Shown piece by piece: positions 4,206 through 22,245 of a stretch of DNA of 64,000 nucleotides; within the stretch, counting starts at the first letter, position 1, and each line of letters begins with the position of its first letter. Source of the stretch: Vitrella brassicaformis CCMP3155 (Eukaryota > Protista > Chromerida); NCBI GenBank assembly GCA_001179505.1, contig CDMY01000198.1, positions 107,371-171,370 of the forward strand, read 5' to 3'. The notes below the pieces were generated by a model that had not been told where the DNA came from, ran no database searches, and was given only the letters and a program-made list of their open reading frames with translations. The position numbers were made by a program, and so were the translations under genes.

Positions 4206-5831
4206 CGGCAGCGGTTGGATGAGGCGCATGCATGCCAGCAGCGGCAGCAGGGGCAGCTAGGAAGGGTGCCGATGGGGCCAGCCAGGGGAGTTTGAGAGCC
4301 TGCATGACCGACCGACACACAACATGTGATTGACATTGTGCCGCTTTTCGCCTGTGTGCTGACTGGCTGACCTCCTCTGCTGATGCGCCCTCGAAGATTG
4401 CAACCAAAAGGCTGACGAGGTCCCTCGATGGCGGCTCGGGCAGCTCCCTCGATAGAGCAGCGCGGAGGCCGGTCTCGGTGTCCTGCATTTCGAAAAAAAG
4501 GGCAAGTAAAGTGAATGTCTCTCAGACAAGTGTCTGGTTAATGCTCTCCTACATAATTGGCGACGATGTCCGCGGCCTTGTCGGCGTCGACGCCCATCAA
4601 ACGCAGTATAGCGACCCATGGCAGACAGACACGTGAAGCGTCCACTGTGCGTGGTTTAGTGAGCAGACGTACCTGCCCACATCATGTCCTCGGCGGCCCC
4701 CTCGCCCGTCTGCACACACATCAATAGCACCAAAGAGGGACAATGGTGAGCCAGGCAGCCATCCAGGCGGCTATCCATCAATCGATGTCGTCGGTGTGTC
4801 TCACCAGGTCCTCCTTCATAAGATCCAGGTCGATCAACACCGTAGAGCCGTCGGCCCGTCGCATGAGGTTTTCGGGTTTGACGTCGTGGTGGGCAAGGTG
4901 GCGGCGGTGGAGGTACGCGAGGGCTTTGAGTAGGTCTTTTGTGATCGTCCTCGCCTCGCCCTCCCCCACGCAGCCACCAAGCTCCCACACACCCTGACCT
5001 GCACACACACATGGACACATACATGGACACATACATGGACACACACAGAGAGAGAGAGATGGATAAACGAGTTGGTCAACAAGTCTTCTTGCCTTCCTCT
5101 TCAGTTACCCTCTATATATTCCACCAATATACACGTCCGACCGGCGCTCGCCACATCAAAACTCTCGAGGAGCCGCACGATGTTGGGGCAGCTGGCCAGG
5201 CCCTTCTCCGCGTAAAGGCGGTAGGTCGGCTGGAAGTGTCGCTGTTCAACACAGAGACACACAGATAGTGTCGTGTGTGTGCTGTGGTCTGCATGTTGCT
5301 TACCCCGCCTCTCGAGTAGTTCTCCTCGAGGACCTTGACCGCTTTTCCGCCCGACAATTTCCATATCTCGGCCTGGCCGCCCCTCGTCAGCTTCCCCTCC
5401 ACCTCCAACCCATGAATATCATGTAACACCCCCTGCACACGTCAGCCAGCGGACAGCACACAATGAGGTATACATCTCAGTGAGCCACGGTGAGTCTGCT
5501 GACCTGGATGTCCCTCTCTGCCCTGGTCTCCCTCCAGTCCTGCAGCCACGCACACAACCGGAGACCCGGAGACGGCAGGTGAGACAGCGAGGTGGCTTGT
5601 GACAGCACTCACTGATGGCTGGCTCACCTCCTCGACTGTGCCGCTCTCCCGCATGATTTCCACCCTCTCCCTCGCCGCCGCCTCGCCCACTCTGGCTTTG
5701 GTGCCCTCGTAGGCGGCCGCCTCTTGAAGCCGCCTGTACTCGGCGGGCGGGTGGAGGGGCAGGGGCGGGTACTTGAGGCGGTGCAGGGGCACAGGTGAGT
5801 GCACACGTGTGTGCTGTGTCCTGGCGCTCAT
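4206..5831 (-). CDS. Divergent multi-exon protein kinase (kinase 3); Pro-rich 3' exons probably continue toward ~3.2 kb
   Basis: Spliced reading: KLTRGGQAEIW..KAVK, CPNIVRLL, ILVEYIEG, LLKALAYLH..HHDVKPEN (4869-4892), LIDLD (4823-4831), EDMMWAG, ALKLPWL. Introns are GT-AG except one acceptor (CAT near 4620). Confidence 0.75.
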
Positions 5832-5920
5832 TAGCGAAAAAAGAAAAATATCGCGCCCAACGGTCTCATGCATTCAGTGAGACTGGGGGCATCTCGCAGA
5901 GAGAGACCATCGTAAGAACC

Positions 5921-6316
5921 ATGATGAGCGCCACGATGACACAGCACACACGTGTGCACCCACCTGTGCCCCTGCACCGCCTCAAGTACCCGCCCCTGCC
6001 CCTCCACCTGCCAGCCGAGTACAGGCGGCAACAGGAGGCCGCCACCTACCAGGAGGACCTCGCGGCACTGGGCGAGGAGGCGGCGAGGGAGAGCGTGGAG
6101 ATCCTTCGGGCGAGCGGCGTGATCGATAGGGTGAGCCAGCCATCAGTGAGTGCTGTCGCCAGCCACCTTGTCTCACCTGCCGTCTCCGGTTGTCTGCGTG
6201 GCTGCAGGACTGGAAGGGGATGAGGGTGCAGAGGGACATCCAGGTCGGCAGACTCACCGCAGCTCACTGAGATGTATATCTCATTGTGTGCTGTCCGCTG
6301 GCTGACGTGTGCAGGG
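5921..6316 (+). pseudogene. 5' two exons of a kinase 3 paralogue (kinase 4), head-to-head with kinase 3 and truncated by the retroelement
   Basis: Inverted homologue of ~5436-5831 (TQHTRVHPPVPLHRLKYPPLPLH..., DW..R..RDIQ exon and both introns). Homology stops 2 nt after the acceptor at 6312-6314. Confidence 0.8.
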
Positions 6317-6864
6317 TCTGATGCTCGTAAGGCCAATCTGTTGTATGGTCATCTGCTGCGTGTGATTGATTTTACAATGCACGAATGCCAGGAGTCTCTT
6401 GTGTTTGGTCTGTCTCGGTGTGTCGATGAGTTGACTCGATTTGGTTTTTCACGACCATTCATCCATCGCCAACTGACTCGTGTTGCCCGTTACTTCCCCT
6501 CACTGCTGCGTGCCCTGCGTGAGTGAAGCACACTATGATCTGCCTGCCCGTTGTTGTTGTATCACCGCATCCCGCGAGACGAACACCGCTGCGGTTTTTG
6601 CTGCCCCGAACTCTTTACATGCGAATGGCCAGTAGGCGTGCGCGCTTCATGTAAGTGGCAGTGACTTGATACATCAATCGACGTGTGAGCGGTTAGAAGC
6701 ACGTCCACACACAGATCTACGTCTGTAAGGAGGAGATCCAGCCATTGGTGTTCCTTCTGAAACGTCCCTCGCTCCGTCTCCGTCTTCTCACAGCTAATCT
6801 CCTGCCCCCTTGCTGAATCCCCTCCGTGACCCACGCGCGCACTAGCGCACCTTGCGCGTATCCG

Positions 6865-8178
6865 ATGTCGTCCCACCGTAACACTGATTCCTTGGCAGAT
6901 CTCAGGAGATCTACCAATCTCGGCAGCACGGCTACTCGCTTTGGATTCCCGCCCTTCGGCAGCACCAACCGCGACCCACCCACCCCTCCCACCGTCCCGG
7001 GATGCGGGACGTGTCAGCATATCCGATTCATCAACAACCCGCTCAACCCCTTCCGCGTCGGATACAAGAAGGACGGCCGTTTCATAGGATGCGTCGCCAT
7101 GACACCCGGCATCGAGAGTGCTATCACCAGCGGCACCAAGCAATTCAAGCTCGTCGACAACGACTACGTCCCGCTCGTTGACGAACTCACCAAGCCAGGC
7201 ATGCTCATCGGCCTCCAACACCATGAGGCCGGCGTTCGCGGTCTCAGCAGCGACATACTCCTCCTCAGCGCCATCATGGTCAAGAAACTCTGCAACAAGC
7301 ACGGCTACGACACCCCCCTCTCCCGTGGCGCCGGCGACGCTGCTGCCGCCGATCGGTACATCCACAACCCGATGAATCGAGCGGATGTCCGCAATCCACT
7401 CGCCAACGACCTGACAGCCGCCACCCACTGCCTCGCGAAGATCAGCGACTTCATATGCGACCACGACGGCAACACGCCGATTGAGCTCATGAACGCCCTC
7501 CCTCGCCTTCTTCAGGATTTCGCCACTCAGCCCGGCCCTTCTTCGAGTCGCCGCCGCAAGACATCATCCAACGCAGCTGCCGCGGCCGCCTCTCCGGCAG
7601 ACGACGAAGACTCAATCCATGCTGAGCAAGACGACTTCTTCAACGCCAACGACATGGAGCAAGACAACAAGGACGACGACTTCGACATGTACGACGATGA
7701 CGCTGCCATTGCCCGTCGAGACGTCATTCCCATGGTCCGATTCAAGACACTCATCGGCCTCCAAACTCACCTCTCGGACATCCCCGACGACATCCAGCAG
7801 TTCATGGGCGCTGTCGTCACACCCACGGCCGCCATCGTCCAACTTGGTGGCCTGCTCAACAGCGACGACTGCGTGATCGACGCCCCCAACGTCATCGACG
7901 ACTTCACCCTGCAGCAAGCCGCATTCTTCGCCAACCACATCGCCTCCATGCTTCCCCCGGCCAAGGCATCCCGCGCCAAGACCGCTCAGGAGCTCCTCAG
8001 TTGGGGCAAGCGCATCGACGCCAACGTCCACCTGTCGGTCAAGCAAGTCATCAACTATGTCGCCATCAAATACGCCATCAGCCTACGCGCCAAAGGTCCC
8101 AGCAATGCGTCACAGGGATCGTCACAGGGATCGTCAGTCAACACCCGCGGTCGTGCATCCACAAAAAAGACTGACTGA
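6865..8178 (+). CDS. ORF1 of the retroelement, unknown function
   Basis: Intronless open frame from ATG 6865 to TGA 8176-8178. Codons are strongly C-ending; the centre is acidic and the tail is Ser/basic. No domain recognised. Confidence 0.75.
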   Translation: MSSHRNTDSLADLRRSTNLGSTATRFGFPPFGSTNRDPPTPPTVPGCGTCQHIRFINNPLNPFRVGYKKDGRFIGCVAMTPGIESAITSGTKQFKLVDNDYVPLVDELTKPGMLIGLQHHEAGVRGLSSDILLLSAIMVKKLCNKHGYDTPLSRGAGDAAAADRYIHNPMNRADVRNPLANDLTAATHCLAKISDFICDHDGNTPIELMNALPRLLQDFATQPGPSSSRRRKTSSNAAAAAASPADDEDSIHAEQDDFFNANDMEQDNKDDDFDMYDDDAAIARRDVIPMVRFKTLIGLQTHLSDIPDDIQQFMGAVVTPTAAIVQLGGLLNSDDCVIDAPNVIDDFTLQQAAFFANHIASMLPPAKASRAKTAQELLSWGKRIDANVHLSVKQVINYVAIKYAISLRAKGPSNASQGSSQGSSVNTRGRASTKKTD

Positions 8179-10090
8179 TGTAAGGCGCCACTGGAGCTTC
8201 GCCCCCAGTGGCAACACCGAAATCGACCGGTGCTTCCTGCCAATCCGTTTTCCTCGTCTGTTATGTCTGTCCCTTATAGATCAGACTCTGTACGGTCAGT
8301 GGTTGGATCTCCAGACGCGTCATCGCCCTCCTTTTCCAGCTGCGCGTGCTGTACTACTGGGCAACACTCACTCACTCACGTACCCGAACAAGGCGCTGCA
8401 ATTCATCCATCTGAGCATGCTATCTCGTTGCTTTTGACTGCGTGTAAGAATGAATCTGTGAAGCTCTCGAGTACTCGTCAGGTGTTTCGTTTTCTTCGCT
8501 TTTTGTCACGGGTGCGCCATCTACTCCACCACCTTCGTACACACACCCGCTGTTCCCACTGTAGATGCACGTGGCGTATGTGCCGTTGTGAGTGGCTTTT
8601 CATTTTGCAACCCACACACCGTGAGCCGTTTCGCGCCGTCCGTCTGGATGGTCTACGTGATTTTGCCTCACCATGTGTCCAACATCGCCTGACACCCTCG
8701 TCAATTAAGACTCTCTGTACGCGTCTCTTTTCTATCCAGTCTCGCGCGATGTGTGCCCTTGTGTCACGTACCCCTACCCCTTTCCTGCGTAAGATCCATG
8801 CATTGAGAGAGCGACTGGGTGCTCTTTTTGCGCCTGGTGTACACGACATGAAGCATGGCCTCTATCTGCTGTGTTCCCCTTGGTCCACTCAGTCTTATCT
8901 CGGTTTCACGACACGTGGTTATGTTGTGCGTTGGGATGAGCATGTCAGTCACGCTTTTCGTCATGGCACTCGCTCCCACTCCCCACAGCAGCACTTATAC
9001 GGCTCTCTGTCGCGAAATGATGTATGTGCGTATGCATGCGTCCCTCTGTGTTCATTTGACGCGTTGGGTCTCACTATACATCAAATGAAGTCGATTGAAG
9101 TACAGGCCATTGACGCTTTTCAACCCTCACTCAACACACATTCGTCCTCTCGTCATGATTTGCATGCACTGCATCGCCNNNNNNNNNNNNNNNNNNNNNN
9201 NNNNNNNNNNNNNNNNNNNNNNNNNNNNNNNNNNNNNNNNNNNNNNNNNNNNNNNNNNNNNNNNNNNNNNNNNNNNNNNNNNNNNNNNNNNNNNNNNNNN
9301 NNNNNNNNNNNNNNNNNNNNNNNNNNNNNNNNNNNNNNNNNNNNNNNNNNNNNNNNNNNNNNNNNNNNNNNNNNNNNNNNNNNNNNNNNNNNNNNNNNNN
9401 NNNNNNNNNNNNNNNNNNNNNNNNNNNNNNNNNNNNNNNNNNNNNNNNNNNNNNNNNNNNNNNNNNNNNNNNNNNNNNACTCACCTGCTTTGCCTTTTCG
9501 TGCCTTTTCCCCCATCCATCCATCTGCTGACTCGCTCCCGTCTGCATTGATCAACCCATCTGTGCCCCCACCCACCCTTTGTGCCACTGCTGCGCTGCTT
9601 GCTCGTCGTCCGTCACCCAGCCAGGCCACCCTTGCTGCGATTCGTGGATTGTCTGACACTGACAAGTGCCGTCTGTATGTATGCGGTCTGCGTGTGTTGT
9701 CCGGTGTGCATTGGGAATGGTTCGAATCTGCCTTTCGTCGTGCTATTCGTGTTCGGGACCAATTTCGACTATGGCGGCCACGGCTACTTGTCCGTTTGCA
9801 TGTTCCTCTTATGTTGAATGATGTGTCGTGTTTCCGCCAGGCCGCGATTCATACCATACGTCACCTCCTGTCCGGTGTTGCGTCATCGTCACTGTTCCAT
9901 GTGCAGGCAGCGTTCATTCCATCTGCGTGTCCATCCCTGACCACCTTGTACTATAATGCTAAGCGAATGGCGTCACAGACCCTCTCACAAGTGGTCTGTC
10001 CATGCCACCTGCCTCATTTTACGCAATGGCCACGCATCGATGGGCATGTCTGTGTGCGCCTGAGTGATCCATTCATGCGCGATGTCTTGC
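8179..10090 (+). CDS. ORF2: GIY-YIG endonuclease plus CxC..H linker (truncated pol-like ORF)
   Basis: Same frame as ORF1 and open from 8179. Cys cluster CSHCRC..CRC, then GIY-YIG motifs. A 300-N placeholder lies at 9179-9478. The last ~115 nt of the listed ORF (to 10206) come from an unrelated repeat. Confidence 0.75.
8187..8212 (+). promoter_or_regulatory. Hairpin 8 nt downstream of the ORF1 UGA (candidate recoding signal)
   Basis: gccactgg (8187-8194) pairs perfectly with ccagtggc (8205-8212) around a 10-nt loop. The hairpin is seen directly; its function is inferred. Confidence 0.45.
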
Positions 10091-10448
10091 GCGTCCGCCT
10101 TTATGCCATGTTTTGGGCAGTGCATGCTGCGTTCGGATGCCGCTGTATCAACCAATCACTATGGGCGTACACTGCGCGTACATCACAGTCGCGATTTGCA
10201 GTGTGACTGACAAATCTGTGCGGACTGTGCGGACCAGGCACCATCCAGACAAAAAGACGTTAACAAAGTGATGGATGGATGGATGGATGGACAGGCAGAC
10301 AGACAGACGGGCCAGCCGATACAGACAGCCACACACAGACGAGTATCAAGACTGGTGCACGTGATGGTGAGTGCGGCTGGCTGCCCAATGAATGGCGTGA
10401 TCAATCAATGACAGACACTTCAGTCGTCGGTCGATTCATGTACAAGTG
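10090..10448 (+). repeat. Dispersed ~350-nt repeat, copy 1
   Basis: Homologous to ~15331-15680 and includes a 65-nt identical core (10152-10216 = 15382-15446). Confidence 0.9.
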
Positions 10449-15330: not shown

Positions 15331-15680
15331 TGCGTCCGCTTTTATGCCATGTACGTGCAGTGTACGCCATGTTTTGTATGTCCAATCACTATGGGCGTAC
15401 ACTGCGCGTACATCACAGTCGCGATTTGCAGTGTGACTGACAAATCACTTGACTGATCATCTCATGACGTGTCTGTGCAGAAAGACGTTTACAAAGTGAT
15501 GGATGGATGGATGGGCAAGGCAGACAAGGAGGAAGACAGGCGGGCCAGCCGATACAGACAGCCACACACAGACGAGTATCAAGACTGGTGCACGTGATGG
15601 TGAGTGCGGCTGGCTGCCCAATGAGTGGTGTGATCAATCAATGCAGACACTTCAGTCGTCGGTCGGTTCATGTACAAGTG
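15331..15680 (+). repeat. Dispersed ~350-nt repeat, copy 2
   Basis: See copy 1. Confidence 0.9.
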
Positions 15681-22157: not shown

Positions 22158-22245
22158 CATCACGTGCACCAGTCTTGACACTCGTCCGTGTGTGGCTGTC
22201 TGTATCGGCTGGCCCGCCTGTCTGTCTGCCTGTCCATCCGTCCAT
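22158..22245 (-). repeat. Dispersed repeat, partial inverted copy 3
   Basis: Reverse complement of ~10286-10366 (gggccagccgatacagacagccacacac..caagactggtgcacgtgatg). Confidence 0.85.

Follow-up and report, generated by a model that had tools for sequence, protein, structure and literature searches.

A 64,000-nucleotide (nt) stretch of the Vitrella brassicaformis CCMP3155 genome (contig CDMY01000198.1, positions 107,371-171,370; hereafter, the window, numbered from its first base) carries a Penelope-like element (PLE), read on the forward strand, in which two open reading frames (ORFs) share one frame and are separated by a single UGA codon (8176-8178). ORF1 ends at this codon, and the same frame continues from 8179 into ORF2, which encodes a GIY-YIG endonuclease (EN) and whose closest relative continues into a reverse transcriptase (RT). 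The stop is followed by an 8-nt spacer (8179-8186) and a predicted hairpin (8187-8212), and this spacer and stem sit within a 100-nt GT-AG intron (8180-8279) that begins one base after the UGA and is partly spliced. Removal of the intron keeps the UGA and offsets ORF2 by 2 nt. The junction is real and conserved; splicing at it was observed in assembled contigs and is a second layer of control rather than a way across the stop, which would be passed by recoding. On balance, it seems probable that unspliced RNA makes an ORF1-EN-RT fusion by UGA readthrough, while spliced RNA makes ORF1 only.

The principal features of this boundary had been described in an earlier reading of the same DNA (the original prediction), and most of its description of the stop and hairpin was borne out. 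The two ORFs are in one frame with only the UGA between them, and the 8-base-pair (bp) stem (8187-8194/8205-8212, closing a 10-nt loop) is perfect, with pairing probabilities of 0.93-1.0 in three folding windows. Among the 2,266 positions of ORF1 and ORF2, no other perfect 8-bp stem (loop of 3-20 nt) occurs, and of the 9,129 window positions sampled, 25 have such a stem 6-10 nt downstream. Folding of four windows gave modest z-scores (-1.7 to -2.7). The reported change from C-ending to T-rich codons was also found, with third-position C falling from 0.59 in ORF1 to 0.25 in ORF2 and T rising from 0.13 to 0.37. This change sets in approximately 35 codons before the stop, and a difference in codon usage is as expected for unequal expression of the two ORFs. 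A -1 frameshift at the A-run 8163-8169 was rejected, since a stop at 8172-8174 closes that frame. Near the end of ORF1, a 12-nt tandem duplication (8112-8135, encoding SQGS twice) is absent from the related protein P0002; it contains two GGGA words, located 50-60 nt before the stop, that are loosely similar to a termination upstream ribosomal binding site (TURBS).

Genomic copies of the element were compared via contigs of eight of the 20 listed sequencing runs (X1-X7 and X12), which contain the family of the window (family A) and a diverged family (family B); both were present in all four runs first compared. Family B corresponds to the gene of P0002, a V. brassicaformis protein with which its indels and a loose end agree. 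The ORF1 proteins of the two families are 62% identical, and their ORF2 sequences differ at 169 of 972 nt. The 46 nt from 8171 to 8216, comprising the end of ORF1, the UGA, the splice donor, the spacer, the stem, and the loop, are nonetheless identical in both families (46 of 46), which upholds the earlier view of a real module boundary. In run X5, these 46 nt form a contig with a depth of 41, close to that of families A (24.2) and B (21.7) added together, and contigs break at 8187, 8200, and 8216 at the invariant block. From 6770 to 9168, no other identical run reaches 31 nt in the two families, and a 46-nt identity at one specified place has a chance probability of 1.5e-4 to 5e-4. The list of differences in family B for 8187-8325 is complete and holds 23 changes, among them 8220 (in the CGAA partner), 8263 (ATG to GTG), and 8283 (in an AG).

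Several elaborations of the junction fare poorly by this comparison. A pseudoknot had been proposed between the loop and CGAA at 8218-8221; this CGAA is present in the window, but family B changes 8217, 8220, and 8222. Reinitiation at the ATG at 8263 had also been suggested, and that codon is GTG in family B. A second hairpin at 8215-8232 was rejected, as family B alters 8217, 8220, 8222, and 8229. The expectation that other copies would conserve the UGA and stem held in that family B keeps both; neither arm of the stem has changed between the families, which leaves no substitutions in which covariation could show.

The intron was predicted from the contigs of family B in run X2 and then seen directly for family A in run X3. 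In X2, the ORF1 contig of family B extends 175 letters past 8019 rather than 166, and its ORF2 contig starts at 8280 (43 letters). In X3, a single contig of family B has 188 letters between 8019 and 8326, which equals 136+9+43. For family A in X3, a joint from 8179 to 8280 skips exactly 100 nt with GT..AG ends at a depth of 23.8, next to an unspliced path with a depth of 42 and flanks of 60.7 and 74.3; contig depth is a rough measure of isoform share. The junction was thus direct for family A in one of the eight runs and deduced by letter count for family B in two of the eight, in two studies. Family A is unbroken across the intron in X2, where all that family B contributes of the intron is a piece of low depth (6.4). 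In runs X1, X4, X5, and X6, both families are unbroken across the acceptor, and no spliced DNA copy was seen there; X7, which lacks cover at 8136-8235, and X12, a single 154-nt piece away from the junction, are uninformative. Although no record gives their library type or strand, runs X2 and X3 are taken as RNA, because of the GT-AG skip and because their assembled sizes (48.9 and 51.5 million letters) are smaller than the reported 72.7-Mb genome (PMC4501334).

The intron has a GTAAG donor, a pyrimidine/TG-rich tract, and a TAG acceptor, and the acceptor is kept in family B even though four of the eight bases of 8272-8279 differ. Splicing at the junction, which the original prediction had raised as a way to fuse the ORFs, therefore occurs, but through an intron that it had missed and whose removal leaves the stop in place and ORF2 out of frame. 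The in-frame ATG at 8263 is within the intron, and the next, at 8578, lies within a conserved Cys cluster. Given this position and the 2-nt offset, spliced RNA offers no conventional way of making an intact ORF2.

When retained, the intron looks coding, judging from its nucleotide and peptide comparisons. In both families, the ORF frame runs through it with neither an indel nor a stop, the probability of an open frame by chance being 0.31. Families A and B differ at seven positions of 8217-8262, of which five are third positions (P 0.045) and four are silent; five nonsilent changes cluster next to the acceptor, at 8263-8276. The peptide encoded in the ORF frame at 8191-8250 is conserved in a third family, represented by P0003, a 1,136-amino-acid (aa) metagenome protein that is 53% identical to ORF2 and continues into RT motifs. 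Over aa 1-24 of the intron peptide, 14 residues are identical to P0003 (6 of 12 in aa 1-12 and, beyond the invariant block, 8 of 12 in aa 13-24). Past the acceptor, the match continues through a linker (10 of 33) into the remainder (154 of 267). The ORF frame scores 78 against P0003, versus 16 for the other frames, and only 2 of 5,000 shuffles of aa 13-33 score as well. The likeness to P0003 is known at the protein level, and conservation at the RNA level instead is possible.

UGA readthrough, as originally proposed, remains the best single mechanism that we can infer for passing the stop. In unspliced RNA, where ORF2 is in frame, translation would yield ORF1 plus a small share of an ORF1-EN-RT fusion through low-level readthrough, which the hairpin beginning 8 nt past the UGA is predicted to promote; the intron peptide would be translated as part of this fusion, and spliced RNA would give ORF1 alone. 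ORF1 would thereby be a gag-like product made in excess. In favor of readthrough, the 8-nt spacer and structure match those reported for murine leukemia virus, tobravirus, and kelch sites (PMC3159437). N-terminal zinc knuckles and an endonuclease occur together in one predicted protein in 6 of the 37 relatives examined (gene models), providing a loose precedent for a fused upstream module. A stricter version, in which the readthrough signal is itself an intron and the endonuclease-RT can be made from unspliced RNA only, and there only via UGA readthrough, is a serious possibility that we hold somewhat short of probable. Action of an RT in cis, on its own RNA, is familiar from L1. If the RT acted in this manner here, then only intron-containing RNA would be copied and genomic copies would keep the intron.

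A number of findings weigh against this interpretation. The stop context is UGA-U rather than the leaky UGA-C, and no pseudoknot is conserved between families A and B. In the Candida retrotransposon Tca2, a UGA followed by a predicted pseudoknot is reported to have given no readthrough from the junction alone (PMC2194720). For the coding character of the intron, the codon test is marginal (over the whole intron, 6 of 12 differences are at third positions, P 0.18), and aa 25-33 are not conserved in P0003 (1 of 9). In addition, the start codon assigned to P0003 falls exactly on the codon that follows this stop, in agreement with an ORF2 that is initiated on its own.

The last point bears on the main rival, AUG-independent reinitiation, by which unspliced RNA would yield a separate ORF2 through termination and reinitiation at a non-AUG codon past the stop (e.g., CUG at 8191) with the aid of the hairpin, in the manner of SART1, and spliced RNA would give ORF1 only. 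AUG-independent reinitiation has a precedent in ORF2 of L1. The initial M of P0003 occupies the position just past the stop, and conservation with that protein begins at the Leu of CTG 8191. SART1, also a bicistronic retrotransposon RNA, is reported to require structure downstream of the ORF1 stop, and near-cognate codons are usable (PMC10275272). SART1, however, uses an overlapping AUG, whereas the sole AUG at the stop here (8178, other frame) runs directly into UAA, and ORF2 is in frame with ORF1; such a shared frame is not required for reinitiation, yet is present in both families. Moreover, CTG 8191 is inside the stem, and the upstream GGGA words (8115 and 8127) lie in a stretch where family B did not align at 80%. 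Reinitiation is accordingly regarded as rather unlikely.

Splicing itself invites two other explanations. Family B looks mostly spliced, which counts against readthrough as the purpose of the junction and would suit spliced RNA being the message for ORF2, through either a start that overlaps the stop (in the ORF2 frame, CUG or an AUA spanning the junction, overlapping the UGA) or a Penelope-type 5′ untranslated region (UTR) intron behind an internal promoter, with the hairpin tuning the adjacent donor. Splicing is kept in both families, the offset after splicing equals that of UGAUG-type coupling, the Penelope intron is reported as needed for protein expression (PMC2377424), and Tca2 has a junction promoter (PMC2194720). 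No in-frame AUG precedes 8578, however, a UGA at 8172-8174 closes the frame upstream so that a -1 slip at the A-run would terminate, and it would not be explained why the intron has an open frame, silent changes, and a peptide that is conserved; this arrangement is judged unlikely. Alternatively, a rare splice from a donor in ORF1, such as GTCAGT at 8133, whose phase agrees with the acceptor at 8279, could remove the stop and fuse the ORFs without recoding. ORF1 has two consensus-like donors (7689 and 8133) that match the used acceptor in phase, and rare isoforms are lost from contigs. No such joint appeared in any of the eight runs, the X3 contig of family A being unbroken to 8179, and this splice would skip the conserved intron peptide and leave the invariant hairpin unexplained. 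The particular intron envisaged in the original prediction has both its GT (8150) and its AG (8283-8284) in the window but has no joint in the eight runs and no AG in family B. Fusion by alternative splicing is thus very unlikely.

The invariant block also admits other readings. In 4-6% of simulations, an identical run of this length turned up at some place within 2.3 kb; DNA that could show covariation comes from just two families; and constraints on the donor, the hairpin, and the coding sequence can each account for part of the 46-nt identity. No related loci, including the DNA behind P0003, were found in scans of metagenomes, viruses, and prokaryote genomes. Gene conversion between families A and B is possible, because they share further identical blocks: one at the pseudo-long terminal repeat (pseudo-LTR) end, to 6769, and another from approximately 9169 into the assembly gap. 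The latter spans at least 31 nt (perhaps 87), as deduced from contigs of both families ending alike 20 letters past 9178, an observation made in X2, X4, and X5. Running to approximately 77 nt past 9178, this block may be the cause of the assembly gap, and it could represent either a conversion tract or a further cis-element. Conversion would also be part of a scenario of decay, in which the UGA arose long ago by nonsense mutation in copies that are dead or nonautonomous and the intron reflects cryptic splicing by the host. The window copy lacks the RT core and copy numbers are low, in keeping with decay, but both ORFs are open in both families with catalytic residues intact, 20 of the 33 listed differences in ORF2 fall at third positions (a bias with P 0.001), codon usage shifts where the two ORFs meet, and the acceptor persists amid substitutions. 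Decay is therefore considered highly improbable.

Compared to known systems, the junction recalls gammaretroviral gag-UAG-pol and the alphavirus, tobravirus, and kelch UGA sites, with which it shares an in-frame stop, an 8-nt spacer, a downstream structure, and raised silent-site conservation (PMC3159437). It differs in its UGA-U context, small local hairpin, lack of a conserved pseudoknot, and a candidate signal removable by splicing. Like Candida Tca2 gag-UGA-pol, this is a retrotransposon whose ORFs are split by one UGA followed by a predicted structure; Tca2, in contrast, is an LTR element with a junction that gave no readthrough alone and with a minor promoter there, and its abstract describes no intron (PMC2194720). 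The Ty1/copia element EVD is described as using spliced RNA for its first product (GAG) only and unspliced RNA for the enzyme (PMC5580714), as proposed here, but from one long ORF with splicing coupled to premature termination, whereas here the stop precedes the intron and both isoforms would make ORF1.

Among PLEs, Penelope and Chlamys-3_cRei are reported to carry a spliceosomal intron in the 5′ UTR that is likewise retained in genomic copies (PMC2377424, PMC8557442). Those introns are upstream of a single ORF, and that of Penelope aids expression, while the present intron is between two ORFs, is apparently coding, and breaks the frame upon removal. A frameshift with a pseudoknot between ORF1 and the RT is already known for PLEs with an ORF1, as opposed to an in-frame stop, and occurs in elements without an endonuclease (PMC8557442). 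An upstream ORF1 is reported in two Chara Chlamys families as well (Chlamys-2/5_cBra), while the text and supplement of the same paper, so far as they were available, mention no chromerid family and no readthrough (PMC8557442). No account of this junction, nor of a readthrough-type signal in a spliceable retroelement intron, was found in a literature search that left subscription papers, Repbase, and Dfam outside its scope. We take the PLEs with the ORF1 frameshift and pseudoknot to be Athena.

The reason for intron retention by PLEs at retrotransposition was called unknown in the 2021 paper on this clade (PMC8557442), and antisense and unspliced templates have both been treated as open (PMC3846280). 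The Vitrella junction makes this question testable in a 110-nt cassette, in which intron retention is predicted to be necessary for RT production. If the proposed mechanism is true and combined with cis-preference, then intron-containing RNA would be selected for copying, providing a concrete mechanism of intron retention in at least one PLE family. It would also represent a new way to set the ratio of ORF1 to enzyme, with splicing and readthrough at one site, and the first stop-codon readthrough among PLEs that searches could find. It would further show how such ORF2s escape annotation, ORF1 being listed in databases as a separate protein.

ORF1 (6865-8178, from ATG 6865 to the TGA) encodes a 437-aa, 47-kDa protein that matches no known family; searches returned no Pfam family and no usable Atlas match, and its AlphaFold model was unusable (predicted local distance difference test score of 30 from 2 rows). 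P0002, which has the same end point, is the sole homologue found among proteins of 240-765 aa. The ORF2 fragment (8179-10090) comprises the EN-CxC part; its frame is open from 8179 up to the N gap at 9179, and the window protein has no Pfam match of its own. A Cys cluster (8551-8589), approximately 90 aa upstream of the GIY motif and holding the in-frame ATG 8578, is kept in distant relatives; no CCHH motif was seen by eye. The CxxC...CxC form of this cluster is common to P0005, P0007, P0008, P0010, P0014, and P0019, which may represent an undescribed Chlamys-like subgroup.

The GIY-YIG endonuclease domain occupies 8851-9144. In a 34-row alignment, R251 and E307 are invariant and Y229, Y240, G242, H255, and N319 are nearly invariant; 11 of the 34 rows match Pfam GIY-YIG, the window protein not among them. 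A model of ORF2 aa 225-322 resembles I-TevI (Z 9.7, root-mean-square deviation 2.3, 89 aligned), and the best Foldseek matches are GIY-YIG, yet with E > 0.001, while a PDB sequence search (query A4) gave no match below E 0.04. The assembly gap (9179-9478) is represented by 300 N, with a true size of approximately 26 codons by alignment to P0003 and P0004; the gap length is nominal, and frame continuity across it was dropped as evidence. Beyond the gap, a CPC...GHV motif (9997-10050), recognized by sequence and alignment with relatives, corresponds to the CxC motif described as diagnostic of Naiad/Chlamys elements (PMC8557442). Similarity to P0003 and P0004 ends by 10104, and ORF2 ends near 10090, before the RT core, in an unrelated repeat (10091-10448) that is 83% identical to 15332-15680; the gap beside this break may hide a misjoin. 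The interrupting sequence belongs to a dispersed noncoding repeat with GGAT/GACA microsatellites, present at 10091-10448, 15332-15680, and partly at 22158-22245. RT motifs were located in relatives, with DK and the catalytic DD in P0003 and DK also in P0004; Pfam RVT_1 was below cut-off (E 0.15). P0003 has a long segment between RT motifs A and B, a candidate for the insertion-in-fingers domain.

Upstream, the region from 6316 to approximately 6735 is identified as a pseudo-LTR, since bases 6316-6526 code for the RT C-terminus: P0003 aa 1064-1126 and P0006 match 6317-6523 by tblastn. It is a partial-tandem copy of the 3′ end of the element, with the last ~70 RT codons, a stop at 6524-6526, and 3′ UTR. 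A pseudo-LTR copy had been anticipated at 6527-6860; one exists, but it begins at 6316, includes the RT C-terminus, and ends near 6720-6740, the right end being approximate (6719-6740) from contigs of 6316-6719/6739 with loose ends at both borders. A second pseudo-LTR type, ~85% identical (31 differences in 211 nt over 6316-6526), was seen in four runs carrying families A and B. In addition, family A has a 5′-truncated copy that is fused to foreign sequence at 8686 (8686-8709), with depth doubled downstream, a truncation typical of PLEs.

With its N-terminal GIY-YIG and CxC motif, its DK motif and C-terminal RT (in P0003/P0004), and its partial-tandem pseudo-LTR, the element appears to be a Chlamys-like PLE with the N-terminal EN+ layout of Naiad/Chlamys, a placement made by layout rather than by tree, which would extend Chlamys-like elements to chromerid algae. 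It departs from that group in having two ORFs where Chlamys elements typically have one, an ORF1 without a zinc knuckle or known family, a Cys cluster preceding the EN, and no hammerhead found: no CTGANGA..GAAA core was present at 6200-10200 on either strand, and no Rfam match in 6200-9178, a scope that excludes the inner RT region of the element because the window does not contain it. A lack of canonical hammerheads is itself typical of Chlamys. A hammerhead-like reading of CTGATG...GAAA was rejected, the core being imperfect and the GAAA altered in family B. Naiad selenoproteins are reported in this clade (PMC8557442), and the codon after the UGA is Cys, raising the possibility, also put forward originally, that the UGA is read as selenocysteine. 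Naiad UGAs, however, replace conserved Cys residues, whereas this one ends ORF1 at a module boundary where relatives have no Cys. Moreover, no selenocysteine insertion sequence (SECIS)-like fold was detected at three RTGA cores of 6527-6740 in a crude scan, and no Rfam SECIS match was found in 6200-9178, making selenocysteine extremely improbable.

Duplications are present elsewhere in the window. Directly upstream of the pseudo-LTR, an inverted duplication (5431-6316) of the start of a kinase-like gene has arms of ~390 nt that are 85-92% identical, and it is possibly linked to insertion of the element. A direct duplication (29670-32268/38226-40962) comprises copies of ~2.6 kb that are 84-96% identical and 8.5 kb apart, and a large inverted duplication (32923-37357/44253-48741) has arms of ~4.4 kb that are mostly 91-100% identical.

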